Shown piece by piece: positions 22,639 through 64,000 of a stretch of 64,000 bases of DNA. Within the stretch, counting starts at the first letter, position 1. The number at the start of each line of letters is the position of its first letter. The stretch comes from Actinobacteria bacterium UBA2286 (GTDB taxonomy: Bacteria; Actinomycetota; Coriobacteriia; Anaerosomatales; Anaerosomataceae): positions 23,061 to 87,060 of the forward strand of contig DDWM01000047.1 of assembly GCA_002345925.1 (NCBI GenBank), read 5' to 3'. The notes below the pieces were generated by a model. It worked only from the letters and a program-made list of their open reading frames with translations, ran no database searches and had not been told where the DNA came from. The translations under genes were made by a program, and so were the position numbers.

Positions 22639-23271
22639 CTAGGTAACCTCAGCAGGGGGTCTACCCCACAGCGCTGTGATTCCAGTCGTAGCCAAGGCTG
22701 CCATCGGCACGTCAACTACTCCCGTCATGAATATCCCAAGGTAGCTCTCTCCATTGGCGGTTGAGGAGAAGCACCCCCAGAATGCGTACATTAACGCGAG
22801 CATGAGGACAGGAAGACCGGCGACAAGCAGGCCTCGGAATCTGCCTAGCCGCGACGAGCCCGAGCTCACCGCAAACCAGGCACCCGCGAGTGACAGCACA
22901 GGGACAAGTGGAAGCAACACTGACCATGGTACCCAGAACATCAGGAAACCAAGTCCTGGTGACGCCGCCAGCCCCAAGAAACCCGCAGCCAACGCCTTCC
23001 CACCACGCCAACGTGTCGTGCGCGGCAGCAGGAGAAAGGAACCGAAAGCACTGCCCGTCGCCAGTGCGATGACGGGAGCTACAAGGCCAGAACTAGAAGG
23101 ACTCAGATTCGCCCATAGCCACAAATCAAAGAGCGCGGCCCCCGCGTAGAGGAGCGCAACGCACGCCGCAATCGGTGAATACAGGGCGAAGAAACGGAGC
23201 GCCAGTTCGCTCAGTTTGAGGCGAAATGCCTGGGATTCACCTACCCCCAAGACCGGTCTTTGATCAGCCAT
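22639..23271 (-). CDS. polytopic membrane protein, unknown function
   Basis: 210 aa with 5-6 TM helices. Its ATG is embedded in an ATGGCTGA overlap with the stop of the upstream start-less frame. Confidence 0.55.
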   Translation of the reverse strand: MADQRPVLGVGESQAFRLKLSELALRFFALYSPIAACVALLYAGAALFDLWLWANLSPSSSGLVAPVIALATGSAFGSFLLLPRTTRWRGGKALAAGFLGLAASPGLGFLMFWVPWSVLLPLVPVLSLAGAWFAVSSGSSRLGRFRGLLVAGLPVLMLALMYAFWGCFSSTANGESYLGIFMTGVVDVPMAALATTGITALWGRPPAEVT

Positions 23272-23564
23272 TCACGTATCCCTCCAGAATGCCCTTCGTC
23301 GCGCCGCGCACGGCGTCCTTATAGGACCCAGCATAGGACCAGTCATCTATTAGCCCCCAGTGGATGACATTCCACGGATGATCGAGCCAGCCGCGTTTCC
23401 CATCCAAACCCAACAGCGGTCTTCGCCCATGCCCAATGGCATCTTGTTTCGCATGTAGAGCGCGGCCAAGCAGCTCCAGCGACGCCTCGACACGACTGCG
23501 GCCGACGATATCCGACCCCCCCCCGAATGTAAAGAAACATTTTCCAGACGCATTCAGGATTCAT
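23264..23564 (-). pseudogene. frameshifted small gene interrupted at a C9/G9 homopolymer
   Basis: A 98-codon minus-strand frame (23267-23560, stop 23264-23266) is open but has no usable start codon. ATG-initiated frames (23564 or 23540) run into the G9 tract (plus-strand C9 at 23516-23524). Removing one G joins them. Confidence 0.35.
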
Positions 23565-23675
23565 CGCACAGCAGAAGGGATGTGGAGTGAGATTGGTCAA
23601 GGAGACAGGCACTGGACGTCTCCTTGTAGCGGTGAAAGATTCCTGGTATTGTTTCCTTTCTAGAAGGGAACACTC

Positions 23676-24992: not shown

Positions 24993-25005
24993 GCGCGGCG
25001 AGCAG

Positions 25006-25428
25006 CTAGAGTATGCGAACCGCCACGCTCTCCCCGACCGCACGCGCAAGCCGTCGATCAGCGGTCACAAGCTCGCACTTGAGCGCCTCGGCAAGCGCAA
25101 CGTAGGCGGCGTCAAAGGTCGAGAGTCCGCGCTCGGCCACAAGCTCGGCTGCTCGGACCATCAGCGCCTCGTCAGGCGAGACCAGCATCAGGTCCACCCC
25201 GAAGAGCGCGCGAATCGCATCAGACAACGCCGGCGACACACGCCCTGGTCGGCGCAGGACGTTCAGGACCTCATGCACCAGCAGCGCCGGTGCCGCCAGG
25301 CGAATCACGCCCTGGATATGCTGCTCCAGCAGATCATCCGCCGCGACCACGCCATCTTCGCCGTCTGTGATGAACCACTTCACGGCGATGCTCGCGTCAA
25401 CGACCAGCAGCGGTGACTCAGCGGTCAT
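25006..25428 (-). CDS. vapC: PIN-domain toxin VapC (paralogue of 5939..6349)
   Basis: 140 aa with an LVVDASIAVKWF N-terminus. It overlaps the upstream RHH gene by 11 nt. Confidence 0.85.
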   Translation of the reverse strand: MTAESPLLVVDASIAVKWFITDGEDGVVAADDLLEQHIQGVIRLAAPALLVHEVLNVLRRPGRVSPALSDAIRALFGVDLMLVSPDEALMVRAAELVAERGLSTFDAAYVALAEALKCELVTADRRLARAVGESVAVRIL

Positions 25429-25699
25429 GGCGGGAGCTCTCGGCAGCGCGAGCCTCGGCCACCAACGATGCGGTGTCGGATGAACCGATTCCGATATCGG
25501 CGCCGATGCGCTTCATTCGCTTGGCGGCGGCGGTCGCTCTCAAGCGCCGTGCCTCGGCCTCGCGGTCAGTCTGCGAGCGCGCGATGTAGCGCACCGAGGC
25601 CTCCTGGATCAGCCCGCTGCGCGTGATGCCGAGCAGCTCTGCCTCGGAGTCGATCTGCTCCAGCAGTTGCTGCGGCATCGAGATGTTGAGCTTGGTCAT
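25418..25699 (-). CDS. vapB: ribbon-helix-helix antitoxin VapB (paralogue of 6346..6633)
   Basis: 93 aa with MTKLNISMPQQLLEQIDSEAELLGITRSGLIQEA. Confidence 0.8.
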   Translation of the reverse strand: MTKLNISMPQQLLEQIDSEAELLGITRSGLIQEASVRYIARSQTDREAEARRLRATAAAKRMKRIGADIGIGSSDTASLVAEARAAESSRHDR

Positions 25700-25754
25700 G
25701 GGTCACTCCTGGTAGAGAATTCGCTTCACCACCAACATACCACACCACGGCGGA

Positions 25755-26156
25755 CTAACCCAGTACCTCTGCGACCTTCAGTATCCGAATGCCCTCGAAC
25801 GTCCCGAGCTCCATCAGGTGCCGGTCCCCAGAGACGATCGCATCCGCCCCGCCCGCTACCGCACATTCAAGCACCCGATTGTCGGGCTCGTCGGAGATCA
25901 CGTGGATGCTCGGCTCAGGGCGAACTATCTCGGCGATGCGGCACAACTGTCCTATCGCTTCGCGGACATGCGCGTCATCGAATCCGAGTACGTCGTAGAG
26001 CTTCTCGGCCTCTTCGGCGAGGATCGCAGGCGATGTGACAAGGTCGAACTCGCCTGCGATCACCGCGCGCATCAGTGAGGCAGGTTTGCCGCCAACGCCA
26101 TACGCGGAGATGTAGACGTTCGTGTCGAGGACGAGCTTACGCACCGCGGGACTCAT
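25755..26156 (-). CDS. PIN-family toxin component
   Basis: 133 aa with LVLDTNVYISA and DEPDNRVLECAVAGGADAIVSGDRHL motifs. Confidence 0.8.
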   Translation of the reverse strand: MSPAVRKLVLDTNVYISAYGVGGKPASLMRAVIAGEFDLVTSPAILAEEAEKLYDVLGFDDAHVREAIGQLCRIAEIVRPEPSIHVISDEPDNRVLECAVAGGADAIVSGDRHLMELGTFEGIRILKVAEVLG

Positions 26157-26388
26157 GGATCAGGCGCTCCACATCCTCTTCGGTGCGGATGCTGCGCTCG
26201 CGCGCGCGTTTGGAGCCGTACTCCCCCAACTCCTCAAACACCTGCAGCTCATGCTCGCGCTTGTACACGCGGACCATCTCGCGGAAGAGCTGGCTCTTGC
26301 TGATTCCGGCCACCGTTGCCATGCGTTCGATGTCGGCGGCAAGCTCAGGCGTGACCGAGAACCCGATCGTCGTCGCAGTGCGTGCCAT
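26137..26388 (-). CDS. ribbon-helix-helix (CopG-like) antitoxin
   Basis: 83 aa with GFSVTPELAADIERMATVAGISKSQLFREMV. It overlaps the PIN gene by 20 nt. Confidence 0.75.
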   Translation of the reverse strand: MARTATTIGFSVTPELAADIERMATVAGISKSQLFREMVRVYKREHELQVFEELGEYGSKRARERSIRTEEDVERLIHESRGA

Positions 26389-26467
26389 CGCTGAATCACC
26401 CGTTTCAAACGGTTTACAACGTCGGATTGAGTGTAGCCGGCTGCGCTCGCGCAGGCAAGTGCGGCCG

Positions 26468-51583: not shown

Positions 51584-52693
51584 GTGACATCCTTCTACCT
51601 TACAGACCTCGCGCTTGAGCCTATTGCCGCCAAGGTCATGGCAGGCGAACGCCTCACTCGCGAAGACGGCTTGACGCTTTACGCAAGCAACGACTTGCTC
51701 GGCATCGGCCAGATGGCCGATCACGTTCGCCGTACGATCAATGGCGATCGCGTGCATTTCATGGTGAATCGCCACATCAACCCGACCAACATCTGCGAGA
51801 ACCGCTGCAAGTTCTGCGCGTTCTCCCGCAGCAAGGGCCAGGACGGCGCTTACGAGATGACGCTCGACGAGATCGTCAAAGCTGCCGAGGAGGCCGTGCC
51901 CGAGGGCGCACACGAGGTGCACATCGTTGGCGGCCTGCACCCCGACTGGCCGTTCGAGTTCTACCTCGACATGATGCGCCGCCTTCGCGCTGCTCTGCCG
52001 CCGCACGTGATCATCCAGGCGTTCACCGCCGTTGAGATCGAGTTCTACTCGCAGATCAGCGAGCTCTCCACGCTCGAGGTGCTGCGCCAGCTGAAAGAAG
52101 CCGGGCTCGACTCCATGCCGGGCGGCGGCGCCGAGATCTTCTCGGACAGGACGCGCATGGCTGCCTGGGACAAGAAGACCTCGGCGGACGACTGGCTCCG
52201 AATCCACGGCGAGGCGCACTCGCTTGGCATCAAGACGAACTGCACGATGCTATACGGTCACATCGAGACCCTCGAAGAGCGCGTCGATCACCTCGTCCGC
52301 CTACGCGAGCAGCAGGACGTAAGCGGCGGCTTCCTCGCGTTCATCCCGCTCGCCTTCCACCCGCTCAACACCGAGCTTGCCGACCTGCCCGGCACGACCG
52401 GCTTCGATGATCTCAAGACGCTCGCGATCGCGCGCCTGATGCTCGACAACATCGGGCACATCAAGGCGTTTTGGATCATGGTCGGCATGAAAGTCGCGCA
52501 GCTCTCCACGGCGTTCGGTGTTGACGACCTCGACGGCACAGTCGTCGAGGAGCGCATCACGCACATGGCCGGCGCGGTCACGCCTGAGGCGCTCAGCAAA
52601 GAGGATCTTCTCGGCATGATCCGTGAGACCGGACACGTGCCGGTTGAGCGCGACACGCTGTACAAAGTGATTCGCGTCTACGACGAGGTGTAA
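51584..52693 (+). CDS. mqnE: aminofutalosine synthase (radical SAM, MqnE-type)
   Basis: The radical SAM motif is CENRCKFCAF. HIVGGLHPDWPFEFY, AFTAVEIEF, TMLYGHIET and GGFLAFIPLAFHP are features I associate with MqnE rather than MqnC. GTG start with a GGAG SD. Confidence 0.75.
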   Translation: MTSFYLTDLALEPIAAKVMAGERLTREDGLTLYASNDLLGIGQMADHVRRTINGDRVHFMVNRHINPTNICENRCKFCAFSRSKGQDGAYEMTLDEIVKAAEEAVPEGAHEVHIVGGLHPDWPFEFYLDMMRRLRAALPPHVIIQAFTAVEIEFYSQISELSTLEVLRQLKEAGLDSMPGGGAEIFSDRTRMAAWDKKTSADDWLRIHGEAHSLGIKTNCTMLYGHIETLEERVDHLVRLREQQDVSGGFLAFIPLAFHPLNTELADLPGTTGFDDLKTLAIARLMLDNIGHIKAFWIMVGMKVAQLSTAFGVDDLDGTVVEERITHMAGAVTPEALSKEDLLGMIRETGHVPVERDTLYKVIRVYDEV

Positions 52694-52696
52694 ACC

Positions 52697-53527
52697 ATGC
52701 TGCGTCCGCGCCTCGGCCATATCCAGTTCATCAACTGCCTGCCTCTGTACTACGGCATGGTGAAGAACGACGTGCTCCTCGACGTCGACCTGGTGAAAGC
52801 GAACCCGGCCGACCTAGCAGCAGAGCTGCTTGACGGACGTCTCGACGTGGCACCGATTCCGGCTATAGAGTACGCGCGGCACGCAGACAAGTTCGTGCTG
52901 CTGCCGGATATCGCGATCTCATCAGAAGGTGAGGTCCAGTCGATACTCCTGGTCTCGAAGGTACCTGCCGAGGAGCTCTCGGGCTGCACCGTGGCGCTTA
53001 CCGACACCTCGCGCACTTCGCAGGTGCTCGCGCGCGTGCTCATCGCGAAGCGCTGGGGCGCAGAGGCAACGTACACCGAGATGCCGCCGGACTTGCCGGC
53101 GATGCTTCGGGATGCCGACGCCGCGCTGCTCATCGGTGACGAGGCACTCCGCGCGTACTGGGACCACCCCGAGGGGCTCTACACGTACGACCTCGGCACC
53201 GAATGGACAACGTGGACCGACCTGCCGATGGTGTACGCCGTATGGGCTGTGCGCCGCACATATGCCGAGGAGAACCCGGCCGCAGTGCAGGCCGTCGCCG
53301 ACGCGCTGACGAACTCACTCTCCTACTGCCGCGGCCACCTCGACGATATCAGCGAGTACGCCGCGCGCTGGGAGCAGTTTCCCGCCGAGAAATTCCGCAG
53401 CTACTTCGACGCGCTGCGCTTCCGCTTCCAGCCGCAATTCCGCGAAGGTCTCGCGCGCTATCTGGCCGAGGCGGTCGCTATCGGACAGCTCGATGCGGTT
53501 CCGACGATTGAGGTGTTCGGCGAATGA
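52697..53527 (+). CDS. mqnA: chorismate dehydratase (futalosine pathway)
   Basis: LGHIQFINCLPLYYG and the periplasmic-binding-protein-like fold are typical of MqnA. Confidence 0.8.
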   Translation: MLRPRLGHIQFINCLPLYYGMVKNDVLLDVDLVKANPADLAAELLDGRLDVAPIPAIEYARHADKFVLLPDIAISSEGEVQSILLVSKVPAEELSGCTVALTDTSRTSQVLARVLIAKRWGAEATYTEMPPDLPAMLRDADAALLIGDEALRAYWDHPEGLYTYDLGTEWTTWTDLPMVYAVWAVRRTYAEENPAAVQAVADALTNSLSYCRGHLDDISEYAARWEQFPAEKFRSYFDALRFRFQPQFREGLARYLAEAVAIGQLDAVPTIEVFGE

Positions 53528-54735
53528 GCGAGCGCATGGGAGGTCCGCCGGTAGGAATCGGCGGCTCAGACAGTCCTCGCTTCGGCGCTGACGCGCCTTC
53601 GCTGCGGAACTCGCCGACGACTCCCACCGGCGACCTCCGCCAGCTTCACGGGCTGGCGTTTGCGGCGGCGCGTGGGGAGCATCGACTCTCGGCGGAAGAG
53701 GCGCTTGAGCTGCTGGCTCATGCCGACATGCTTGCGCTTGGGGCGGCGGCTAGTGCTATGCGCGACCGGCTGCACCCGGAGCGCGAGGCCACGTTCATCG
53801 TGGACCGCAACGTCAACTACACCAACGTGTGCGTGAGCGGCTGCCGGTTCTGCGCGTTTTTCCGCGATAGCAGCGACGCTGACGCTTACTTGCTCTCGGC
53901 AGAGGACCTGTACGCCAAGGTGGAAGAAACGCTCGCGCTCGAGGGCACCGCGATCCTGCTACAGGGCGGCCTGCATCCCGACCTCGGCATCGAGTGGTAC
54001 GAGAACATGCTGCGCGAGCTCAAGGCGCGCTACCCCATCCACGTGCACGGCTTCGGCCCGCCGGAGATGGTGCACATCGCGAAGGTCTCAGGCATCAGCA
54101 CGCGCGAGGTGCTTCAGCGATTGCGCGACGCCGGCCTGGACTCGCTGCCGGGTGGCGGCGCCGAGATCCTGGTGGACAGCGTGCGCTCTCACGTCTCGCC
54201 CAAGAAGGCGACGAGCGACCAGTGGCTTGACGTGATGCGTGAAGCACACGACCTCGGCATGTCGACGACCGCCACCATGATGTTCGGCGGCACGGAAAGC
54301 GTGGAGGACCGCGTCGCGCATATGCAGCGCGTACGTGAGGTCCAGGACGAAGCTGCCGAGAAGGACGCTGTCGGCTTCCGCGCGTTCATCCCCTGGAGCT
54401 TCCAGCCCGGCAACACCGAGCTTGCCGAAGGTGAGTTCACCGGTGCTGCGGCCAGCGGCTGGGAGTACCTGCGCACGCTAGCGGTCTCGCGTCTCTTCCT
54501 CGATAACGTCGCCAACATTCAGGCGTCCTGGGTCACCCAGGGTCCCAAGATCGGGCAGGTCGCGCTGTGCTTTGGCGCAAACGACATGGGCTCCACGATG
54601 ATCGAGGAGAACGTGGTCGCCTCGGCGGGCACGCACTTCATGCTCGCGCGCGAGGAGCTGGTGCGCCTCATCGAAGATGCGGGCTTCACGCCGGTGCAGC
54701 GCGACACACTCTACCGAGAGGTGCGCAGGTTCTAG
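53524..54735 (+). CDS. mqnC: cyclic dehypoxanthinyl futalosine synthase (radical SAM, MqnC-type)
   Basis: Motifs seen are IVDRNVNYTNVCVSGCRFCAF, GGLHPDLGIEWY, PGGGAEIL and ATMMFGG. The gene is ATGA-coupled to mqnA. The N-terminal ~40 aa may be over-called. Confidence 0.75.
   Translation: MSERMGGPPVGIGGSDSPRFGADAPSLRNSPTTPTGDLRQLHGLAFAAARGEHRLSAEEALELLAHADMLALGAAASAMRDRLHPEREATFIVDRNVNYTNVCVSGCRFCAFFRDSSDADAYLLSAEDLYAKVEETLALEGTAILLQGGLHPDLGIEWYENMLRELKARYPIHVHGFGPPEMVHIAKVSGISTREVLQRLRDAGLDSLPGGGAEILVDSVRSHVSPKKATSDQWLDVMREAHDLGMSTTATMMFGGTESVEDRVAHMQRVREVQDEAAEKDAVGFRAFIPWSFQPGNTELAEGEFTGAAASGWEYLRTLAVSRLFLDNVANIQASWVTQGPKIGQVALCFGANDMGSTMIEENVVASAGTHFMLAREELVRLIEDAGFTPVQRDTLYREVRRF
54703..54735. 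repeat. 33-bp direct repeat copy 1 (last 10 codons plus the stop of mqnC)
   Basis: GAC ACA CTC TAC CGA GAG GTG CGC AGG TTC TAG. It matches 57124-57156 at 30/33 positions. Confidence 0.85.
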
Positions 54736-54871
54736 CAGTCCTGACCGTCTGACGCGTATCCACTCCCGGCTGGAAAACGCTGCTATTCTGGCGCGCCTCG
54801 GACTATACTCGGCACAGTGCGTCTCGAACGGTGGGGTTCAGTCGCTTTTCAAGGTCCTAGGGGGAATCACA

Positions 54872-57124
54872 GTGCGCAGAGTCACGCTGGTGTTCGTATT
54901 GGCGGCTATCCTGATGCTCGCACTGCCGAGCGCGGCGCACGCAGCAGATATATATGTGAGCACCACCGGGAGCGATGCGCTCGGTGCGGGCACGGAAGCC
55001 TCTCCTTTCGCGACGATCCAATATGCGATCGACACCGCCGTCGGGAACTTGGACCCCTCTGACAACGTACATGTCGCGGCCGGCGAGTACACCGGCAACA
55101 TCACGATGAAAGACTGCGTCTCACTCTACGGTGCGGGATCTGCCGAAACGACTATCACAGGTACGGGAGCCGGGTCGGTCGTGACGATCAACAGCATCGG
55201 CACGGGGGAAACGCTTTCGGGCTTCACGATCTCCGGCGGCATCGCGCCCAGCTTCGGTGGCGGCATCTACTGCGACTCCTCCTCGCCGACGATCGAGGGC
55301 TGCACCATCTCGGGCAACACCGCGTCTTATGGCGGCGGCGTCTTCTGCATCCTCTCTTCGCCGACGATCGAGGGCTGCACCATCTCAGACAACAGCGCGG
55401 ATTACGGCGGCGGCATCTGGTGCACCTTCTCCTCGCTGACGGTCACGGACTGCACCATCTCGGGCAATCGCGCGACCATGGGTGGCGGCATCTACTGCAC
55501 CTCATCCTCGCCGACGATCACGGACTGCACCATCTCGGGCAACAGCGCGGCTTTCGACGGCGGCGGCATCTTCTGCTACGACTCCTCGCCGACGATCACG
55601 GACTGCACCATCTCAGACAACACCGAGTCCTCCTACGGTGGCGGCATCTTCTGCTGGTACTCCTCGCCGACGATCACGAACTGCACCATCTCAGACAACA
55701 GCGCGGTCGCCGGCAGCGGCATCTGCTGCCACTACTCCTCGCCGACGATCACGGACTGCACCATCTCAGACAACAGCGCGGATTACGGCGGCGGCATCTG
55801 GTGCACCTTCTCCTCGCTGACGGTCACGGACTGCACCATCTCGGGCAACGGCGGCCTCCAAGGTGGCGGCATCTTCTGCGGCGACTCCTCGCTAGTTATC
55901 ACGAACTGCACCATCTCGGACAACACCGCGGCTTCCGGCGGCGGCATCTACTGCCGGTCCTCCTCGCCGACGATCACGAACTGCATCGTGTGGAACAACG
56001 GCGACGACCTCTATAACTGCATTGCCACCTACTCATGCATCTCTACTGCCGGAGACGCCACAGGCGATGGCAACATCACCGACGATCCTCGATTCGTGGA
56101 TGCGACAAACGACGACTACCGCCTGCAGTCCGGCTCGCCGTGCATCGACACTGCGACGTCCGAGGGAGCCCCGGCCACAGACATCGACGGAGTCGTGCGA
56201 CCCCAGTGCGCGGGCTACGACATGGGCGCGCACGAGTACTACGTGGTATCCGATCCGACGCTCTCCTCGGCGACGCATACCGAGGGCGTCTGGTCTAACA
56301 ACAAGACCGTGACCGTCGACATCACTGCGGCCACCGGCACCGCTCCAGCTGCAGCAGGCTATGCGATCTCGATAAGCCAAAACGCCACCGCCTACCCAGC
56401 CACCACAATCACCCAGGACGCCTCAGCCCAAAGCTTCAGCTTCGATGCTGCCACTGATGGCACCTGGTACGTCAACGTCGCCACCCTCGATGTGTTCGAC
56501 TGCTGGTCTGAGGGCGTCTCATTCGGACCGATCGTGATCGATACGACCACCCCGGTCACCACTGCGTCCGTCACTGATTCGACTGGCGAGGCGACCGTCC
56601 GGTTCACATCCTCTGATGCCATGTCCGGTGTTGCAGCTATCTACTGCACGGTTGACGGAGGAGCGGTAGGCAGCGGCAGCTCGGTCGTGGCGAGCGGGAC
56701 AGGTACGCATACGATCGTCTACTGGGCATCAGACAAAGCCGGCAACGTCGAGCTCTCCCATACACTGGCGGTTGAGATCGCCGCACCCGCGGCGGGTGGG
56801 ACCGATACAACACCGGACGACACCGATGCCAGCGACGGTGGCGGGACCGCGGAAAGTGAGGGGGCCGCAGTCGCATCTCCCGACGGCGAGGGCAAGGATA
56901 CAGCGTCAGCGGACGTATCCGAGACCGTAGTCGCCTCTTCCGAGGACGACGGTACCGAGGAAGCAGCCGGAGGAGCATTGCCAGTCGCGGACGGGCAGGC
57001 TGCTCCTGCCGATGAGCAGAACGAGAGCGGTTCTCTCGGCTGGATACCGTGGGCGGTGCTCGGCCTGGTCGCGCTTCTCGGCGGGTTTGGCGCATGGCAA
57101 GTGCTCGCGAGGCCTCGACCGTAG
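54872..57124 (+). CDS. secreted right-handed parallel beta-helix repeat protein with an acidic stalk and a C-terminal TM anchor
   Basis: The GTG at 54872 has GGGGGA 7 nt upstream. The signal peptide ends in AHA/AD. A DUF1565-like N-terminus (IYVSTTGSD...SPFATIQYAID) is followed by ten ~25-aa GGGI(Y/F/W)C..SSPTI..CTIS.N coils. There is also a VYWASDKAGNVE Ig-like motif, an Asp/Glu/Gly/Thr-rich region, and a TM helix plus RPRP tail. Confidence 0.8.
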   Translation: MRRVTLVFVLAAILMLALPSAAHAADIYVSTTGSDALGAGTEASPFATIQYAIDTAVGNLDPSDNVHVAAGEYTGNITMKDCVSLYGAGSAETTITGTGAGSVVTINSIGTGETLSGFTISGGIAPSFGGGIYCDSSSPTIEGCTISGNTASYGGGVFCILSSPTIEGCTISDNSADYGGGIWCTFSSLTVTDCTISGNRATMGGGIYCTSSSPTITDCTISGNSAAFDGGGIFCYDSSPTITDCTISDNTESSYGGGIFCWYSSPTITNCTISDNSAVAGSGICCHYSSPTITDCTISDNSADYGGGIWCTFSSLTVTDCTISGNGGLQGGGIFCGDSSLVITNCTISDNTAASGGGIYCRSSSPTITNCIVWNNGDDLYNCIATYSCISTAGDATGDGNITDDPRFVDATNDDYRLQSGSPCIDTATSEGAPATDIDGVVRPQCAGYDMGAHEYYVVSDPTLSSATHTEGVWSNNKTVTVDITAATGTAPAAAGYAISISQNATAYPATTITQDASAQSFSFDAATDGTWYVNVATLDVFDCWSEGVSFGPIVIDTTTPVTTASVTDSTGEATVRFTSSDAMSGVAAIYCTVDGGAVGSGSSVVASGTGTHTIVYWASDKAGNVELSHTLAVEIAAPAAGGTDTTPDDTDASDGGGTAESEGAAVASPDGEGKDTASADVSETVVASSEDDGTEEAAGGALPVADGQAAPADEQNESGSLGWIPWAVLGLVALLGGFGAWQVLARPRP
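55256..56011 (+). repeat. ten tandem ~75-78-bp coding repeats (beta-helix coils) with a 381-bp higher-order period
   Basis: Units start at 55256, 55331 ... 55937. A 93-bp stretch is identical between 55375-55467 and 55756-55848. Confidence 0.9.
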
Positions 57125-57156
57125 ACACTCTCTATCGCGAGGTGCGCAGGTTCTAG
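57124..57156. repeat. 33-bp direct repeat copy 2 (orphan mqnC 3' end)
   Basis: GAC ACT CTC TAT CGC GAG GTG CGC AGG TTC TAG. It starts on the last base of the beta-helix gene stop codon. Confidence 0.85.
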
Positions 57157-57259
57157 GATTTGCAGCCCGAACCCGAACACCCATCATTTCTCCCCGATAA
57201 CAGCTCCCCGACCGCCCGGAACGGGTACCCTAGGGTTGGACAAACAAAGGGAGTTGAAC

Positions 57260-58534
57260 ATGGAATCTAAGACAGCCAGCGCGTGCACCCAGCCAAGTAC
57301 CAAGCGGCGCGTCGTCATCGCCGGCGGAGGCTATGCCGGTACAACGCTCGCAGTCCGCCTCGGCAAAGCACTACGTGAAGCCGACGATGTCGAAATCCTG
57401 CTCATAGAGCCGAATCCTTGTCAGCAAGCGCTCTCCGAGCTTGACCTTGTGGCTGTTGGCCCCGCCCGCGCCGAATTCTGCGAGTTGTGGCTGCCGACGC
57501 TCTTCAAGGACCTACCTGTGACCGTCTGTTACAACAGGGTTCACGAGGTCAAGCCGAACGATCACGTGCTTACCGTCGGGCCGCGCAACGGCCCGCATGA
57601 GGATGTACCGTACTGGCGTCTCGTGCTCGCCACAGGCGCAATCGCCTTCGTACCGCCCGTTCCGGGACTGGCCGAGCATGCTGTCACCATGTGGTCTGTC
57701 GCAGACGCTCAGGAGCTGCAGCGCCGGATTGAGGCGCAATTCCGTGCGGCGGCGATGATCGCGGACCGTGACGCACGGGTGAAGGCTCTGTCGTTCGTGG
57801 TCATCGGCGGCGGTGCTACCGGCATCGAGATCGTTGGCACCCTCGGCCAGATGCTGCCGAAGCGCATGCTCGACGCGGGTCTCGACCCGGCCGACCTGCG
57901 AATCAGCGTCATCGAAGGTCGCCCTGATGTCCTCTACGACCTCTCAGACACACTGCGCAAGCGTGCCCACAAGCGTCTGGAGCACCTTGGCATCAAGCTC
58001 TACACCGGCTCGATGGTATCGGCGGTCGAAGCGGGACTCGTGCGTCTTGCGGACGGCACCGAGGTTAACGCGAGCGTGCTCGTGTTCTGCGGTGGCGCCA
58101 AGGCCGACCCGGACGCGATTTCCTGGAGCATGGAGGCTGACCCCTCCGGCAGGCTCGTGGTAGATGCGATGTGCCGGGCAGTGGGACACGAGGATATCTA
58201 CGCGACGGGCGACGTAGCCGCATTCCGCGACCCGAAGAACGGTCGCACTCTCCCGATGTTGGCCCAGTTTGCCATCAGGGAATCCGAGCACACTGCGGAC
58301 AACATACTGCGCGAGGCGCGAGGCCAGGCGCTCACCCCGTTCATACCGAATATGCACGGTGAGTTCGTCAGTATCGGGCCGAGCTACGGTGTCGGATGGG
58401 CTTTCAAGATCAACCTGGTTGGGCTTCCGGCCATCGTCATGAAGCGACTGACGTACTTGATGTACTGGTTCTCGGTGGGTGGCATCAAGCTCACCTGGAA
58501 GCGCACCAAAGAGATGCTCTCTATGCAGCGCTAG
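57260..58534 (+). CDS. ndh: type II NADH:quinone oxidoreductase (NDH-2 family)
   Basis: It has two dinucleotide folds (VVIAGGGYAGT, FVVIGGGATGIE). The ATG at 57260 has GGGAG 6 nt upstream. Confidence 0.85.
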   Translation: MESKTASACTQPSTKRRVVIAGGGYAGTTLAVRLGKALREADDVEILLIEPNPCQQALSELDLVAVGPARAEFCELWLPTLFKDLPVTVCYNRVHEVKPNDHVLTVGPRNGPHEDVPYWRLVLATGAIAFVPPVPGLAEHAVTMWSVADAQELQRRIEAQFRAAAMIADRDARVKALSFVVIGGGATGIEIVGTLGQMLPKRMLDAGLDPADLRISVIEGRPDVLYDLSDTLRKRAHKRLEHLGIKLYTGSMVSAVEAGLVRLADGTEVNASVLVFCGGAKADPDAISWSMEADPSGRLVVDAMCRAVGHEDIYATGDVAAFRDPKNGRTLPMLAQFAIRESEHTADNILREARGQALTPFIPNMHGEFVSIGPSYGVGWAFKINLVGLPAIVMKRLTYLMYWFSVGGIKLTWKRTKEMLSMQR

Positions 58535-58582
58535 CGCGCATCATGTCACAGAGGTCGGGTACCCTGTAGCCAAGGAGGAACC

Positions 58583-59425
58583 ATGACGACAACAGGAGTG
58601 CCCCGCGCCGAGTTCGGCGTTTGCGGCGGCAGCGGAACGCTATCATTCGCATTCCCGGCAGGGCTGGAAGACGATCGGGTTGAAGTGCTGGCCGAGGACC
58701 TGTTCTTCGACACGCCGTTTGGACGCTCGCCGTCATTCACGCACTTTCGCGTGACCGGCACGAGCGGCGCGCGCGAGGCGCTCGCCGTGAAGATGCACGG
58801 TTGGCGGCGCGGAGTGAAGCGGGCGGATGCCAGCCTGCAGACGTTCTGGGTCTTCCACGAGGCCGGCGTTCGCAAGGTGCTTGCCGACGGAGGCGTGGGC
58901 TCACTGAACCATCTGCTGGACCCGCGAGACGTATTAGTGCCAACCGACTTCGTAGATCTCACAATGAAGCAAGACATCTACGTCCGAGGCGATCACCTAC
59001 TGATCATGCGTCAGCCGATCTGTCCGGATCTTCATGGCCACCTATTCTCCTCGGCAAGTGAGCGCTTCGCGCGCGTCTTCCGACGCGGCTCATATCTGGT
59101 GACTGACGGTCCAAGATTCGAGACACCGGCCGAAGTCGACTATATGAAGCGACTTGGCGCGGATGTGATCGGGCAGTCGCTCTCACCCGAGGTCTTCCTC
59201 GCACGCGACATAGGTGCCTGCTACGCCGGCATCTACATGGTTGTGAACTACGGCGAGGGCGTCGTGAAGGAGTGGGAACACAAGGAGCTCAAGGCTATCT
59301 TCTTCGAGGAAGCGGCCAACGTCGCCAGGTGTGTTGTTGATGCAATCGCAGACGCCGACCTTGATGCCGCATGCGGCTGCATGGATATGCGTAAGCCGAG
59401 CCTACTGAACCTACCGCAGGAGTGA
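58583..59425 (+). CDS. purine nucleoside phosphorylase family, MTA/MTI (5'-deoxy-nucleoside) phosphorylase-like
   Basis: 280 aa. GPRFETPAEVDYMKRLGADVIGQSLSPEV and the overall MtnP-like layout are present. AAGGAGG SD. Confidence 0.75.
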   Translation: MTTTGVPRAEFGVCGGSGTLSFAFPAGLEDDRVEVLAEDLFFDTPFGRSPSFTHFRVTGTSGAREALAVKMHGWRRGVKRADASLQTFWVFHEAGVRKVLADGGVGSLNHLLDPRDVLVPTDFVDLTMKQDIYVRGDHLLIMRQPICPDLHGHLFSSASERFARVFRRGSYLVTDGPRFETPAEVDYMKRLGADVIGQSLSPEVFLARDIGACYAGIYMVVNYGEGVVKEWEHKELKAIFFEEAANVARCVVDAIADADLDAACGCMDMRKPSLLNLPQE

Positions 59426-59429
59426 GCGC

Positions 59430-60728
59430 ATGATCGTCAGCGGCGAATGGCTGCTACCGGTCGTGGGCGATCCGATTCGGCGCGGGGCAGTGCGAATCAC
59501 CGGGTCGCGAATCAGCGAGATCGGCACTTTCGAGGCTCTGAGGCGCGCGTATCCGAAAGAAGCGACGCACGACCATCCCGGATGCGTCATCACACCTGGT
59601 CTCGTAAACGGGCACACGCACTTGTCCCTTTCGTCCATGCTCGGGCTGTTGCCGCCCGGAGAGTTCTCGACCTGGATAGCCAAGGTGGCCCCGGCAGTAC
59701 AGGCGCTTGACCACGACGATTTCGCGGATGCCGCCGCTTACGGCGCGCTAGAGTGTCTTCGCTCGGGCGTTACGGCCGTCGGCGACATCGCATACGGCCC
59801 CGAGGCTCCGGCCGCGGCGGCTGACACCGGAATCGGTGGGGTCTTCTTCTGGGAAATTCTTGGCATGACAGCCGAGCAGCTTCCTGAAGCGCTGGCGTCA
59901 CGCGACTTCCCGACCGAGAACATGTCTTGCGGCGGCCGAACTCTCTGCGGCATAAGCCCGCACACGCCTTACACCGCAGGACCAGGGTTGATTCGGGCGG
60001 CATACGACTACGCAAGCGAACACGGCTACGCGTTTGCGATCCATGCTGCCGAATCAACCGCCGAGGCAAGGCTTCTCATGGCCGGAGAGGGGCCGCTCAG
60101 ACAGTCGGCAGGACGACTCGCACCTGACTTCGTCGCCCCTGGTATGGGGACGGTGCGGTACCTCGAACACCTCGGGGCGCTCCGTGACACTATTGCGGTG
60201 CACTGCGTCCAGCTCATGTCCGGCGAGCCGGAGCTGCTCGCCGCGCACGCACGAGGCGCTGTACTGTGCCCCCGCTCAAATCGCTACCTCCTGAATGGTA
60301 AGCCGCCGGTAGCCGCGCTCGTGCGAGCTGGCGTCCGCCTCGGACTAGGAACCGATTCACTTGCGAGCAACGAGACTCTAGACCTCTTTGAGGAGGCCAG
60401 AGAGCTTCTCGCTATCGATCCCGGTCTCTCAGCGTCCAGAGTGCTCGCCATCATGACGCTTGAAGGCGCGCAGGTCCTCGGCATCGACCGGGACTACGGT
60501 TCGTTTGAAAGCGGCAAGTACGCCGATATCATCGCGGTGGAAATCGGCGATACGAACGACCCGGCTTCAGCATTCATACGCGAGGGCTCGCCCGCGCGAG
60601 TGCGCTCGGTCATCACCGGTGGAGTCTGGCGTCTCATAGACGGCCGCATGGCGTTCCTCACAAAAGACATCGAACACAGAAGCGCCCGGGTCACCGAAAA
60701 GGCAGCCCGGGCGCTCCGTACAAGTTAG
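59430..60728 (+). CDS. amidohydrolase-superfamily nucleoside deaminase (MtaD/DadD/aminofutalosine deaminase-like)
   Basis: The metal ligands are in PGLVNGHTHL. HAAES and GTDS motifs are typical of the MTA/SAH/AFL deaminase subgroup. Confidence 0.75.
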   Translation: MIVSGEWLLPVVGDPIRRGAVRITGSRISEIGTFEALRRAYPKEATHDHPGCVITPGLVNGHTHLSLSSMLGLLPPGEFSTWIAKVAPAVQALDHDDFADAAAYGALECLRSGVTAVGDIAYGPEAPAAAADTGIGGVFFWEILGMTAEQLPEALASRDFPTENMSCGGRTLCGISPHTPYTAGPGLIRAAYDYASEHGYAFAIHAAESTAEARLLMAGEGPLRQSAGRLAPDFVAPGMGTVRYLEHLGALRDTIAVHCVQLMSGEPELLAAHARGAVLCPRSNRYLLNGKPPVAALVRAGVRLGLGTDSLASNETLDLFEEARELLAIDPGLSASRVLAIMTLEGAQVLGIDRDYGSFESGKYADIIAVEIGDTNDPASAFIREGSPARVRSVITGGVWRLIDGRMAFLTKDIEHRSARVTEKAARALRTS

Positions 60729-60736
60729 TTCGGTTT

Positions 60737-61444
60737 CTACGACTCGCCGAGGTACGTCTTCCGGACCTGCTCGTTGTGGAGCAGCTCTTTCCCGGGACCC
60801 TCGAGTGCGATCGAACCAACCTCGAGCACATAGCCGCGATGCGCTACAGAGAGCGCCATGGCGGCGTTCTGCTCGACCAGGAGGATGGTGATGCCCTCTT
60901 TGTTGAGCTTCTCGATGATCCCAAAGATGGTCTCAACGATGACCGGAGCCAGACCCATCGAAGGCTCATCAAGCATGAGCAACTTCGGGCGAGCCATGAT
61001 GGCGCGACCCATGGCAAGCATCTGCTGCTCGCCACCGGACAGCGTGCCGCCCTTCTGAGAGAGGCGTTCTTTGAGGCGTGGGAACAGTGTGAACACCTGC
61101 TCGGTGTCCTCTTTGATACCGTCGACGTCCTTGCGAAGGAATGCGCCCATCTCAAGGTTCTCGGCAACGGTCATTCGAGGAAATATGTGCCGTCCCTCTG
61201 GTACCTGAATGATGCCCTTGGCCGTGACCTTGTGAGGGAGCATGCCTGAGACGACTTCCCCGTTGAGGGTAACCGAGCCCTCAGTGGGCGTAAGCTGACC
61301 TGAGATGGTCTTGAGAGTCGTCGACTTTCCGGCACCGTTCGCGCCGATGAGCGTGACGATCTCGCCCTCATTCACCTCGAGGCTGATGCCCTTGAGCGCC
61401 TCGATCTGGCCATAATGCGTGTGGAGGTTCTCGACCTTAAGCAC
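60737..61444 (-). CDS. livF: branched-chain amino acid ABC transporter ATP-binding protein
   Basis: Walker A is GANGAGKST and the signature is LSGGEQQML. LivF-type, 235 aa. Confidence 0.9.
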   Translation of the reverse strand: MLKVENLHTHYGQIEALKGISLEVNEGEIVTLIGANGAGKSTTLKTISGQLTPTEGSVTLNGEVVSGMLPHKVTAKGIIQVPEGRHIFPRMTVAENLEMGAFLRKDVDGIKEDTEQVFTLFPRLKERLSQKGGTLSGGEQQMLAMGRAIMARPKLLMLDEPSMGLAPVIVETIFGIIEKLNKEGITILLVEQNAAMALSVAHRGYVLEVGSIALEGPGKELLHNEQVRKTYLGES

Positions 61445-61458
61445 TTCGAAATCCTTCC

Positions 61459-62241
61459 TTATGCCTGAGCCAGCATGGCCTCGGCACCTTTGCCGAGATA
61501 TGCTTCGATGACTTTCGGATGCCGTTGGATCTCTGCGGGCAGGCCCTCGGCAATCAGCTCACCGAAGTCGAGCACGTAGATGCGATCCGCAATATCCATG
61601 ACGACTTTCATGTCGTGCTCGATCAGCAAGACCGTTACACCAGTCTCGCGAATCTTGCGCACAAGCTGGGTAAGCCGCGCGCTTTCCTGCGGGTTCATGC
61701 CTGCTGCCGGCTCGTCGAGCAAGATGAGCTTGGGCTCGGTTGCGAGCGCGCGGGCGATCTCCAAACGGCGCTGGGCACCATAAGGGAGGTTCTTAGCCAG
61801 CTCGTTCGCCTTGTCGACCAGACCAACGAACCGCAAGCGATTCAGGGCCTCGTCGATGGTGTGCTGTTCTTCACGCTTGAACCTCGGGGTGCGAAGAACC
61901 GCGCCGAGCGGACCGTTGTTGGTCCGGATATGGCGGCCCACCATGACGTTCTCAAGCGTCGTCATGTTCGCGAACAACCTGATGTTCTGGAACGTCCGGG
62001 CAATACCCATCGCACAGATCTGATGGGCCTTCTTGCCTGCCACGGGAGTACCCTGGAAGAGCAGCTCGCCCTCTGTGGGCTTGTAGATGCCCGTGAGCAA
62101 GTTGAAGAACGTCGTCTTGCCCGCACCGTTAGGGCCGATGAGGGCGACTATCTCCCCTTCATCGATATGCATCTCGAGACCGCTCAGCGCCTTGAGGCCA
62201 CCGAACGCCATCGTTATGTTCTTTGCTTCTACAAGAGCCAT
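61459..62241 (-). CDS. livG: branched-chain amino acid ABC transporter ATP-binding protein
   Basis: GPNGAGKTTFFN and LPYGAQRRLEIARAL motifs are present. The start is at the ATG at 62241. Confidence 0.9.
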   Translation of the reverse strand: MALVEAKNITMAFGGLKALSGLEMHIDEGEIVALIGPNGAGKTTFFNLLTGIYKPTEGELLFQGTPVAGKKAHQICAMGIARTFQNIRLFANMTTLENVMVGRHIRTNNGPLGAVLRTPRFKREEQHTIDEALNRLRFVGLVDKANELAKNLPYGAQRRLEIARALATEPKLILLDEPAAGMNPQESARLTQLVRKIRETGVTVLLIEHDMKVVMDIADRIYVLDFGELIAEGLPAEIQRHPKVIEAYLGKGAEAMLAQA

Positions 62242-62270
62242 GGTTCTCAAGCCTTCCTTGCTACGGGACC

Positions 62271-63479
62271 CTACAGGTCGTGGTCGGCCGTGTCGGTCTT
62301 GTTTTGGGCCTCCCACAGCGACTGGCTCTCCTCGTCACGGATCTTCGCATCATCTGGATGGAGTTCCATGGCGCGACGTGCCGAGGGCCAAATGCCCTGT
62401 GGTCGCACCGCCATCATGATGACCATCACCAGACCGAAGACCAGGTAGCGGTAGTTACTGACGAGCGACGCCTGCCCGGGGTCGAGCGGCAGGATGCCGG
62501 ACTGCGCCAGGCCACGAATCAGCTCCGGGATACCCTGGATGATGATCGCACCGATGATTGCGCCGGGAATCGAGCCCATACCGCCGAGAACAACGATGCA
62601 GACAACGAACACCGACTCCATGAACGTGAAGGATTCAGGGCTGACGAACTGCTGGAAGTTGGCGAATGTGAGACCAGCAACACCACCCCACACAGCTCCG
62701 AGCGAGAACGCCCACAGCTTGGCGCTGGTGATGTTGATGCCCACAGAAGCCGCCGCAACCTCGTCCTCACGCATCGCGGTCCACGAACGACCCAGGCGCG
62801 AGTCATCCAGACGGCGAACGACGAAGATCGTTAGCAGACAGAGCAACACCGCAATGAAGTACCAGTACAAGTTGTTAGAGAACCGGAAGTTGAAGTTCTC
62901 ACCGATACTGAAGACGGCGTTGTCCCGAAGCCAGACGAGACCGGCCGGGTCAGGAATGAACTGACCTGCGCGGGGCAGACCCGCTGCACCGTTCGTGAGT
63001 CCGAACACATCGTTCGTGATCAGGATTCGCACGATCTCACCAAAACCGAGCGTCACGATAGCGAGGTAGTCACCGCGAAGCCGGAGGACCGGCGTACCCA
63101 AAGCTATGCCCGTAGCCGCCGCAGCCAGCGCTGCGACAGGCAGTGCGGCGAAGTACACGTACGGTCCAAAGGACTCGCCGAACAACTTGAGCATCACGTC
63201 GCCAACGAGCACGCCGACATAGGCACCCATCGCGTAAAACGCGATGTATCCCAGGTCGAGCAGTCCCGCAAAGCCGACCACGATGTTCAGACCGAGCGCC
63301 AGCATGACGTACAGGCCGACGACGCCCATGATGCGTACCAAGAAGAGCTGGCCGATTCCCTGGAAGAAGATCGGAACGAACACCACGAGTGCCGCGATGA
63401 TCATGTAGATGATCTTCTGCTTGGTCGTCAACTTGCGTCCACTGACGATTGTTTTGATATCCACTTTACTTCCGCCCAT
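62271..63479 (-). CDS. livM: branched-chain amino acid ABC transporter permease
   Basis: 402 aa, polytopic, with a LivM-type C-terminal extension. Confidence 0.88.
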   Translation of the reverse strand: MGGSKVDIKTIVSGRKLTTKQKIIYMIIAALVVFVPIFFQGIGQLFLVRIMGVVGLYVMLALGLNIVVGFAGLLDLGYIAFYAMGAYVGVLVGDVMLKLFGESFGPYVYFAALPVAALAAAATGIALGTPVLRLRGDYLAIVTLGFGEIVRILITNDVFGLTNGAAGLPRAGQFIPDPAGLVWLRDNAVFSIGENFNFRFSNNLYWYFIAVLLCLLTIFVVRRLDDSRLGRSWTAMREDEVAAASVGINITSAKLWAFSLGAVWGGVAGLTFANFQQFVSPESFTFMESVFVVCIVVLGGMGSIPGAIIGAIIIQGIPELIRGLAQSGILPLDPGQASLVSNYRYLVFGLVMVIMMAVRPQGIWPSARRAMELHPDDAKIRDEESQSLWEAQNKTDTADHDL

Positions 63480-63482
63480 GGT

Positions 63483-64000
63483 TTACACCTTCTCCACGAC
63501 GGACTCGCCGAGCAAACCGCCCGGCCGGAAGATCAGGACGAGGATGAGGATGGCAAAAGCCACAACATCCTTGTAGCCGGCGCTCAGGAAGCCGGCAGCC
63601 AGGGACTCGAGAATCCCGAGAACGAAGCCGCCGAGCATAGCGCCACGAAGGTTGCCGATACCGCCAATAACCGCTGCGGTGAAAGACTTGATACCGGGCA
63701 GAAAGCCCATGTCGAACTTCACGGAACCGTAGTACATGCCGTGGAAGACGCCAGCGATACCACCAAGCGCGGGGCCGATGAAGAATGCCAGCGCGATGAC
63801 CTGGTTGATATCGATGCCCATGAGGCCAGCTGCCTCACGGTCCTGCGAAGTTGCCCGCATGGCCTTACCGATTCTCGTCTTGGACACAAATGTGTCGAGA
63901 ACTGCCAGTAGCAGGAGAGTAGTCACAAGGATGAGGATCTGTAGTGAGTTCACCGTGACGCCACCGGCGTCGATCACGGTCACGACTGGCATGACCGAGG
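63483..64000 (-). CDS. livH: branched-chain amino acid ABC transporter permease, C-terminal part (gene continues beyond the window end)
   Basis: It has a LivH-type sequence to the stop at 63483. The frame is still open at 64000, so the ATG at 63992 is probably internal. Confidence 0.85.
   Translation of the reverse strand, partial: SVMPVVTVIDAGGVTVNSLQILILVTTLLLLAVLDTFVSKTRIGKAMRATSQDREAAGLMGIDINQVIALAFFIGPALGGIAGVFHGMYYGSVKFDMGFLPGIKSFTAAVIGGIGNLRGAMLGGFVLGILESLAAGFLSAGYKDVVAFAILILVLIFRPGGLLGESVVEKV

Follow-up and report, generated by a model that had tools for sequence, protein, structure and literature searches.

Evidence for a lineage-specific insertion of a beta-helix surface protein gene, bracketed by a 33-bp duplication, at the 3' end of mqnC

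Positions 54736–57123 of the window, the 64,000-nt stretch of DNA that was analysed, almost certainly represent a lineage-specific insertion with a 33-bp target duplication, as judged by comparison with related genomes. The inserted segment consists of a 136-nt leader and one beta-helix gene. The upstream copy of the duplicated segment keeps mqnC intact, and the downstream copy is a slowly decaying functionless relic. The insertion scar around the surface protein gene is real and unusually well documented, yet it is an ordinary kind of genome change.

The mqnC gene (53524–54735, forward strand) codes for an intact, 403-aa cyclic dehypoxanthinyl futalosine synthase, assigned on the basis of its ORF, Pfam domains Radical_SAM and CofH_C, and the source names of close homologues. 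Its last 10 codons and TAG (54703–54735, forward strand, GACACACTCTACCGAGAGGTGCGCAGGTTCTAG) recur at 57124–57156 on the same strand (GACACTCTCTATCGCGAGGTGCGCAGGTTCTAG), where they are now non-coding. The copies are identical at 30 of 33 positions and both translate as DTLYREVRRF*; the differences (ACA/ACT, TAC/TAT, and CGA/CGC) all affect third codon positions and are all synonymous. Alignment and translation thus bear out the repeat as described in an earlier sequence-only reading of this DNA. The second copy was also said to start on the last base of the beta-helix gene stop codon, and the orphan does open on the G of that TAG (57122–57124). Counted from start to start, the copies are 2421 nt (3 × 807) apart. 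Their edges are sharp, with identity dropping at once beyond either end; a candidate continuation of the repeat past the TAG (CAGTCCTGACC vs CAGCCCGAACC, at a 6-nt offset) matched at 8 of 11 positions and was judged not significant.

A search allowing up to three mismatches detected the 33-mer at exactly two sites in 64 kb, while 100 dinucleotide-preserving shuffles yielded no matches at the same threshold. Among 167 mqnC loci from many phyla, a second direct copy of the mqnC 3' end was present in this species alone, and a degenerate pattern for the DTLYREVRRF peptide occurred once in each relative's locus and twice in this species only, which excludes that the 33-mer is a common motif. The left junction (260 nt) and the right junction (200 nt) are both present, without a single mismatch, in contigs of three further samples (ENA ERZ27315058, JGI 3300040971, and JGI 3300002702), one of which spans the whole cassette; mis-assembly at the junctions, a concern raised earlier, is thereby excluded. 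Contig breaks within the repetitive beta-helix gene in the two JGI assemblies would be in line with an artefact, but the recovery of both junctions in independent samples, the shuffled controls, and a junction common to a third lineage already refute the notion that the repeat pair is a chance similarity or an assembly artefact, and its probability is negligible.

Related genomes contain the empty site. In the sister species (L181, L182, and L183), whose DNA is about 88–90% identical to the window, mqnC ends with a single 33-mer and is followed by a 109-nt spacer and then by ndh. Alignment with blastn splits exactly at the repeat: positions 1–2982 of L181 correspond to window positions 51755–54736, and positions 2949–9831 correspond to 57124–64000, the lone 33-mer of the sister aligning to both window copies. 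In the window, homology to the sister's spacer is present only after the orphan 33-mer, at 57157–57259 (forward strand), and is followed by a gene for an ndh-like pyridine nucleotide-disulphide oxidoreductase (57260–58534, forward strand), the ancestral downstream neighbour of mqnC. The orphan adjoins the ancestral spacer and therefore sits at the original mqnC terminus. In five more distant relatives ndh also directly follows mqnC, and the mqnC–ndh spacer in relatives measures 42–190 nt. The earlier proposal that a cassette entered at the mqnC 3' end and parted mqnC from ndh thus agrees with the mqnC–ndh junctions of the sister and of the more distant relatives, where the cassette is missing. 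The third lineage (lineage T, P0368) has the same cassette-end/orphan junction; as read from the sequences, the insertion of 2,388 bp is older than the split between this species and at least one other lineage. Other inserts found at the same junctions in relatives (a 5.7-kb insert at three loci, a toxin–antitoxin-like insert at one, and an MBOAT insert at another) were searched for flanking repeats, and none were found.

The orphan copy in the third lineage carries a 1-nt deletion, which shifts the frame, and a non-synonymous AGG>AGT change; the orphan is therefore a decaying relic. In the window, the ACT and TAT codons of the orphan are rare in mqnC itself (ACT is used for one of 21 Thr residues and TAT for none of seven Tyr residues) and fit AT-biased decay better than a functional allele. 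If all three changes occurred in an unconstrained copy, an all-synonymous outcome has a probability of 0.0125–0.04, and if two did, 0.05–0.12; the three synonymous differences are thus weak evidence of past coding constraint on the orphan. The earlier claim that the orphan once encoded the same peptide accordingly stands as far as its location at the ancestral terminus is concerned, while the argument from synonymous changes carries little weight. One could suppose that the orphan was kept for a function, for example as an ndh promoter or operator or as an RNA element that once overlapped the mqnC 3' end. The ancestral spacer is short enough for ndh signals to overlap the end of mqnC, and fewer changes between lineages are seen in the orphan than in the adjoining spacer. 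We nevertheless regard such a function as very improbable, given the deletion in lineage T and the free variation of third codon positions of the 33-mer in relatives, which reveals no nucleotide-level constraint beyond coding. At the 33-mers, no unusual RNA fold (z = +0.26 and +0.44), no Rfam match, and no promoter or terminator consensus were found, and an RNA element or terminator was rejected as an explanation for the repeat on these grounds.

The inserted segment begins with the leader (54736–54871, forward strand), which has no homology to the sister's mqnC–ndh spacer. The cassette had been thought to carry its own promoter region; this was not borne out, since neither a σ70-like promoter nor a terminator consensus was found in the 136 nt. 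The beta-helix gene occupies 54872–57124 on the forward strand and shares the G of its TAG with the orphan repeat. The mechanical ORF begins at 54677, within mqnC; the start is most plausibly the GTG at 54872, which gives a predicted secreted protein of 750 aa. The protein matches Pfam families PF13229 (1.8e-37) and PF02415, and contains choice-of-anchor-Q and OmpL47-type domains, about ten 25-aa coils, and an acidic linker. An N-terminal signal peptide and a C-terminal hydrophobic membrane anchor are predicted from the sequence. The protein is thus a putative right-handed parallel beta-helix surface protein with Beta_helix/PMP-type repeats and signals for secretion and anchoring. The coils are encoded by a 75-nt tandem repeat array (55251–55985, forward strand, 9.7 copies), the copy number of which varies between assemblies, accounting for a 51-aa difference. 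Close homologues outside this species were not found in a search limited by the repeat-dominated query, and the C-terminal half gave a weak domain match on one plasmid only. The GC3 of the gene is 0.79, similar to that of flanking genes. The gene of a lineage-specific, repeat-variable surface protein now lies between mqnC and ndh, and may share transcripts with genes for menaquinone synthesis and respiration.

Neither the cassette nor the rest of the 64 kb contains an integrase, transposase, reverse transcriptase, or tRNA gene. Pfam searches of the products of the cassette genes and of every other large ORF in the window, combined with precomputed Pfam tables of same-species contigs, revealed no tyrosine or serine recombinase within or beside the insert. 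The locus presents a clean, datable natural case of a single accessory gene entering the interior of a conserved biosynthetic gene cluster in the absence of visible mobile-element machinery, with both junctions, the empty site, and the decaying scar all at hand for study.

A second event of the same kind was found at the 5' end of panB, where a cassette is bracketed by a ~131-nt duplication and the sister has an empty site. The functional copy A (19868–19997, reverse strand) comprises the panB promoter region, the leader, and the first 32 nt of panB; the orphan copy B (22401–22530, reverse strand) comprises the panB upstream region and the first 32 nt. A gapped alignment of the two copies shows two substitutions and two to three single-nucleotide indels. 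Between them, a cassette of 2,403 bp (19998–22400, forward strand) contains a 140-nt leader and three genes, which code for a MarR-like HTH protein (326 aa), an AbiEii-like protein (257 aa), and an NTP_transf_8 fragment (150 aa). A further lineage-specific island (22531–26460, no strand assigned) lies between folK and panB; it contains two RHH/PIN pairs, a PDC-S01-type ATPase, and a membrane protein, and is flanked by a 7–8-nt G[CT]CGC[AG]C repeat. The duplicated block ends at the far end of the folK–panB spacer, where this other lineage-specific DNA begins. Retro-insertion of an mRNA was considered and rejected, as the leader of the panB cassette has operator-like palindromes and, ahead of the gene, a likely promoter.

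The two events have a common geometry: the duplicated block is met at its outer edge by the leader end of the cassette, and the stop-codon end is joined 32–33 nt inside the target gene. The cassettes are alike in size (2,388 bp at mqnC and 2,403 bp at panB), end 0 and 7 nt after a stop codon, respectively, and have host-like GC3 values (0.79–0.82); the lengths of the duplications differ. Neither terminal inverted repeats or shared termini of the cassettes, nor a motif common to both repeats or to the cassette ends, were detected above shuffled controls, and neither cassette had a match in the loci of relatives. Over the ~35 kb of the window alignable with the sister, the two duplication-bracketed loci are the sole structural differences, and gene-terminus duplications may therefore be of use, as a marker, for tracing homology-anchored gene capture across the genomes of uncultivated Actinomycetota.

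As to mechanism, we tentatively favour homology-anchored capture from a related donor, through single-crossover insertion-duplication or an HFIR-like event, as a plausible but far from assured explanation. DNA from a relative in which the beta-helix gene was already positioned directly behind mqnC would have entered the cell and been captured via mqnC homology. A trimmed fragment could have circularised with 33 nt of mqnC retained and integrated by a single (Campbell-type) crossover; alternatively, in an HFIR-like event, the far end of the fragment could have undergone illegitimate joining to the resident mqnC at a point 33 nt within the gene. Both routes would produce one "native" junction (mqnC stop/leader) and one illegitimate junction (beta-helix stop/33 nt inside mqnC), and the duplication would equal the retained homology in length. 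The panB cassette would be a second product of the same process. Both duplicated blocks are bounded where sequence conserved between lineages ends, which is the mqnC stop codon in one case and the edge of the folK–panB spacer in the other; the mqnC duplication may stop exactly at the stop codon because donor–recipient homology ends there. Host-like GC3 would fit a related donor, and no transposase stagger of fixed length resembles duplications of 33 and ~131 nt. The sequence directly 3' of mqnC and 5' of panB varies among relatives, and donors with other neighbours therefore exist; the postulated donor arrangement itself (mqnC–leader–beta-helix, no orphan) was not found in a search limited by the repeat-dominated query. 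Against capture, 33 nt, of which only 18 nt are now perfectly identical, is very short for a RecA-dependent crossover. The differences between the repeats need no homeologous donor and would fit post-insertion decay. The model also leaves the ~2.4-kb size of both cassettes, and their ends 0–7 nt past stop codons, unexplained.

Experimental precedents exist. When E. coli received DNA with one homologous end, the insert was flanked by a 109–950-bp duplication of the homologous segment in 56 of 60 recombinants; these duplications resulted from a single crossover with a molecule that had been partly degraded and had re-circularised, and classical HFIR accounted for only 4 of the 60 (PMC3240628). 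The main E. coli outcome resembles the events described here in that a stretch of the target is directly duplicated on either side of the insert, the length of the duplication differs between events, a dedicated recombinase gene is absent, and one junction is in register while the other is illegitimate. It differs in that only 33 nt of homology was retained in one of our cases, and in that these events are natural, old, and species-fixed; classical HFIR, moreover, yields an insertion and a deletion rather than a duplication. Displaced orphan 3' ends in T6SS/Rhs loci were given the same explanation, with HFIR as the proposed route (PMC5361080). In such Rhs, CDI, and T6SS loci, as at mqnC, incoming DNA that is anchored in a conserved gene supplies a new gene, and the resident 3' end is left further downstream as an orphan. 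At mqnC, unlike in those systems, the two copies specify an identical 10-residue tip and not a new toxin tip. The insertion is in a housekeeping gene for biosynthesis and displaced only 33 nt, and its cargo is a beta-helix protein with no toxin/immunity logic.

A true target-site duplication from a staggered break would also produce sharp-edged direct repeats that stem from one ancestral copy, with no recombinase, no terminal inverted repeats, and no need for a particular donor arrangement. Nicks 33 nt apart (131 nt at panB) would have been filled in and a free fragment ligated by an NHEJ-type reaction, or replication would have switched templates, copied 2.4 kb from elsewhere, and re-entered 33 nt behind its exit point. 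The short repeat flanking the island at the panB site is compatible with break repair as well. We consider this origin somewhat doubtful: the mqnC duplication has its outer limit precisely at the final base of the stop codon, which would happen at roughly 1 in 100 positions if cuts were random, the panB edge falls within a few nt of the conserved-spacer edge, again a coincidence under random cuts, and fragment ends 0 and 7 nt after stop codons would need chance. Staggers of 33 and 131 nt are atypical of any known bacterial break or transposase. Transposon and IS insertions are likewise flanked by direct repeats of the target, but their transposases make fixed staggers of 2–14 nt, far below the lengths observed here, and terminal inverted repeats and a transposase are lacking in our case.

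At gene ends, the classic integrase signature is an identity block of tens to more than 100 nt that reaches the end of the target gene, as at tRNA, tmRNA, and protein-gene att sites. The 33-mer and the 131-mer could be att-type blocks of this sort, in which case the cassettes would be satellites that lack an integrase, or what is left of stripped integrative elements, mobilised by recombinases from other loci, with the element-borne copy rebuilding the gene end. The blocks do reach the ends of the target genes, mqnC and panB are both intact, and sister-species assemblies break exactly at the 33-mer, which would fit presence/absence polymorphism. Prophages, ICEs/AICEs, and genomic islands in gene 3' ends similarly reconstitute the gene and leave a direct repeat at the far end of the insert. 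Site-specific integration is nevertheless unlikely in our estimation. No integrase is encoded in either cassette or in the 64 kb, the mqnC cassette is a single-gene 2.4-kb insert wholly filled by leader and ORF, with no space for remnants, and the blocks share no motif, so that two different recombinases would be needed. The end of mqnC is not a recurrent att site in the loci surveyed, and the orphan decays by an indel in the third lineage.

A broader reading was also considered, in which both events reflect one directional cassette-capture process, either free of recombinase genes or acting in trans. Such a process would repeatedly deliver units of ~2.4 kb, each running from promoter to stop codon, to the ends of conserved genes, join the stop-codon end ~32–33 nt inside the target, and duplicate 33–131 nt of the target, perhaps reversibly via the repeats. 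We judge it improbable; if true, the assembly breaks at the 33-mer in the "empty" sister would reflect presence/absence polymorphism.

No recombination tract is visible in the flanking genes, which counts against capture from a donor, and nothing unusual was seen around mqnC. The window and the sister are more alike on the panB side (identity about 0.95 vs about 0.87); a donor recombination tract was rejected as its cause, as the same region is also more conserved relative to a second relative, which indicates constraint. No relatives of the panB-cassette regulator were found in viral contigs. The HTH and NTase pair of that cassette also occurs on plasmids, where it offers no flanking clues; there it lies between IS elements and is therefore mobile cargo.

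The last ten codons of mqnC and its TAG stop codon (GACACACTCTACCGAGAGGTGCGCAGGTTCTAG, 54703–54735) recur at 57124–57156 as an orphan copy (GACACTCTCTATCGCGAGGTGCGCAGGTTCTAG) whose first base is also the last base of the TAG that ends the beta-helix gene, with a copy-to-copy spacing of 2421 nt. The duplication of the mqnC 3′ end proposed in the sequence-only reading was confirmed: the two 33-mers are identical at 30 of 33 positions, both encode DTLYREVRRF*, and each of the three mismatches is synonymous and falls at a third codon position. The edges of the repeat are sharp, with similarity lost abruptly on either side, and a search of the window for sites with up to three mismatches returned just these two copies (0 in 100 shuffles). 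Contigs from other samples were retrieved by exact look-up of MqnC and Ndh. Both junctions (260 nt on the left and 200 nt on the right) were found with zero mismatches in contigs from three other samples, and the whole inserted segment was spanned by one of these contigs, of 281 kb, which argues against mis-assembly. That the repeat pair is an artefact is thus extremely improbable.

The mqnC–ndh junction was compared with that of a sister species, represented by HGW-Actinobacteria-6 and matching metagenome contigs (87–90% DNA identity across aligned flanks). In three sister loci (L181, L182, and L183), the segment between the window's two copies is absent: mqnC ends with a single 33-mer (GACACGCTCTACCGCGAGATCCGCAGGTTCTAG), and a 109-nt spacer separates the gene from ndh. 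The blastn alignment is split precisely at the repeat (L181 1–2982 corresponds to window 51755–54736, and L181 2949–9831 to window 57124–64000), so both window copies align to the single sister 33-mer. Each has four differences from it, and the two have three between them. The 103 nt 3′ of the orphan copy are clearly homologous to the sister spacer; no homology to this spacer was found in the 136 nt 3′ of the mqnC stop codon. The empty sister site, together with spacer homology that begins only after the orphan copy, indicates that 54736–57123 (2,388 bp) is an insertion with a 33-bp target duplication, and that the orphan copy sits at the position of the ancestral mqnC terminus. The earlier proposal that a cassette was inserted at the mqnC 3′ end is therefore supported in its main reading.

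In more distant relatives (L005, L085, L086, L088, and L012), mqnC is directly followed by ndh. Other relatives carry unrelated inserts at this place: 5.7 kb in L084 (9096–14777), L004 (from 9204), and L180 (from 10045), and a toxin-antitoxin-like pair with a lipoprotein gene in L006 (9141–10809). In all of these distant relatives, with or without inserts, the mqnC end occurs only once, and no other locus with a duplicated end was found among 167 mqnC loci. The DNA behind mqnC contains, in some relatives, an amino-acid-kinase-like gene and genes for SDR, radical SAM, GNAT, and Cys-rich proteins, and in another an RHH and GNAT pair.

Around the mqnC start (53455–53755, from the end of mqnA through codon ~77 of mqnC), identity to the sister drops to 0.72–0.75, compared to ~0.9 elsewhere in the gene. 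Since mqnC gene calls in relatives begin at differing points, the N-terminal extension is possibly untranslated.

The inserted cassette consists of a leader (54736–54871) and the beta-helix gene, whose start is most plausibly GTG 54872. The 750-aa product has a signal peptide, about ten 25-residue coils (PF13229, PMP repeats), choice-of-anchor-Q and OmpL47-type domains, an acidic linker, and a C-terminal membrane anchor. The 75-nt tandem repeat array within the gene (window 55251–55985; compare L001 9349–11751) differs in copy number between assemblies and is the break point of two JGI assemblies. In an ENA contig, the protein is 51 residues longer (two extra coils) and elsewhere 100% identical. 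The difference reflects either real length variation of the surface protein or repeat collapse.

A third lineage is seen solely via a member of the Ndh cluster, P0368 (from a Logan contig), which is identical to the window Ndh at 412 of 424 positions. Its called ORF begins MASAREASTV-DTL-IARCAVSS, which corresponds to the frame-1 reading of the window from the beta-helix 3′ end into the orphan copy; relative to the window, this orphan copy has lost 1 nt and carries AGT in place of AGG. The two lineages that share the cassette-end/orphan junction are about as distant as the window and the sister. A junction common to lineages so far apart indicates that the insertion at mqnC is old and was retained, with the orphan copy free to take frameshifts. 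In the window (57096–57262), the frame of the P0368 ORF stays open from the beta-helix TAG to the start of ndh, and gene callers therefore yield Ndh ORFs with extra N-terminal sequence (478 aa in P0368, and 432 aa from TTG 57236 in the window).

The states unique to the window orphan copy, ACT and TAT, are rare in mqnC (ACT at 1/21 Thr and TAT at 0/7 Tyr codons), as would be expected if GC-rich third positions were decaying from GC to AT. It had also been argued from the synonymy of the differences that the orphan copy once encoded the same peptide. All three differences are indeed synonymous, but random changes would all be synonymous with a probability of 0.0125–0.04 for three changes and 0.05–0.12 for two, and so this argument for past coding is suggestive at best. 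A present function of the orphan copy is very unlikely, as the region lacks a notable RNA fold, an Rfam match, and promoter or terminator consensus sequences.

A window-wide repeat scan revealed a second event, at panB. Here, a 130-nt direct repeat (~131–135 nt when gaps are allowed, the copies then differing by two substitutions and two to three single-base indels) is formed by copy A (19868–19997), which spans the promoter region and leader of panB along with the gene's first 32 nt, and an orphan copy B (22401–22530). Between them lies a second cassette (19998–22400, 2,403 bp) with a 140-nt leader and genes for a MarR-like HTH protein, an AbiEii-like protein, and an NTP_transf_8 fragment. 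A pairing of the HTH gene with a ~255-aa gene is also found on plasmids, e.g., in Shinella between IS256 and IS21 elements. The sister has an empty site (folK, a 104-nt spacer, and panB), and every cassette junction is present again in two other assemblies. Wherever A and B differ, the derived state is in orphan B; the changes include a weakened ribosome-binding site and altered spacing at the −10 box. Palindromes repeated around the likely promoter in the cassette leader (ATACTAAA / TTTAGTAT, window 20050–20125) resemble operator sites of the neighbouring HTH protein.

A further lineage-specific island of 3.9 kb (22531–26460), part of this second locus, lies between folK and panB. It contains two toxin-antitoxin-like RHH/PIN pairs, an AAA_14/DUF4143 ATPase matching the PADLOC candidate defence family PDC-S01 (1.2e-98), and a membrane protein, and is bracketed by a 7–8-nt G[CT]CGC[AG]C repeat, where the sister has one GGTCGCGC. 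The panB leader (19896–19997, minus strand) is ~99% identical to the sister, compared to ~88–90% overall. It folds better than shuffled sequences (z = −2.3; 4/200), with an upstream CUCCUUCC pairing with the ribosome-binding site GGAAGGAG, and matches no Rfam family; a translational control element is possible. In the relative L176 (6246–9000), an MBOAT gene and a gene for a 356-aa protein lie upstream of panB.

The two loci, 35 kb apart, are the only structural differences seen between the window and the sister, with no other indels of at least 12 nt across ~35 kb of further aligned sequence, and they have the same geometry. In both, the leader end of the cassette meets the duplicated block at its outer boundary, which lies directly after the stop codon at mqnC and at the far end of the conserved spacer at panB. 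The other cassette end lies 0 nt (mqnC) or 7 nt (panB) past the last stop codon and adjoins a point 33 or 32 nt, respectively, inside the target gene, a functional copy of which is kept. The cassettes are of nearly equal size, with host-like GC3. No flanking repeats were found at the inserts of L084, L004, L180, L006, and L176. The junctions behind mqnC and upstream of panB are hot spots of change in gene content.

We infer that DNA of a related donor, captured via homology with a conserved gene, fits best. In the donor, the cassette would already have been next to mqnC (or the panB spacer). A fragment could have re-circularised with a short remnant of the conserved gene and then integrated through a single crossover; otherwise, joining in the style of homology-facilitated illegitimate recombination (HFIR) could have landed the far end illegitimately just inside the resident gene. 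Such capture would give variable duplication lengths, constant geometry, host-like composition, and neither enzymes nor end motifs, with blocks stopping exactly where sequence conservation between lineages stops. Against it count the 33 nt, very short for a crossover; moreover, no donor was found and no recombination tract is visible. It also leaves the equal cassette sizes and stop-codon-tight ends unexplained. True target duplication by a staggered break or template switch would account for the repeats without a donor and is possible, if on the whole doubtful. Site-specific integration by a recombinase encoded elsewhere is unlikely. Integrase, transposase, reverse transcriptase, and tRNA genes are all missing from the 64-kb window, with Pfam tables of contigs of the same species consulted as well; terminal inverted repeats are likewise lacking, and neither the two repeats nor the cassette ends have a motif in common.

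Homology capture has a direct experimental precedent. In E. coli given DNA with one homologous end, 56 of 60 products were single-crossover events with 109–950-bp duplications of the homologous segment, and classical HFIR products were few (PMC3240628); these products are akin to the mqnC event, an insertion with duplication of a gene terminus. Likewise akin is the displacement of 3′ ends in T6SS/Rhs loci, where HFIR-like displacement is the accepted explanation of orphan 3′ ends (PMC5361080). The mqnC feature is the scar that an old insertion of one gene, specific to the lineage and of an already known general kind, has left; both the second event of identical geometry and the lack of any mobile-element machinery add to its interest.

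Three sister records, perhaps not all from independent assemblies, are interrupted precisely at the single 33-mer, while three others (L181–L183) continue through it. The 3′ contig ends of L178 and L179 lie 7 nt into the 33-mer, the 5′ end of L187 lies 1 nt ahead of it, and in the JGI scaffold L185 (6879–6888) ten Ns replace its first 30 nt. Exactly these breaks would result from a population with both empty and occupied sites in which the proximal copy differs slightly, a hint that they may reflect presence/absence polymorphism of an insert in the sister.
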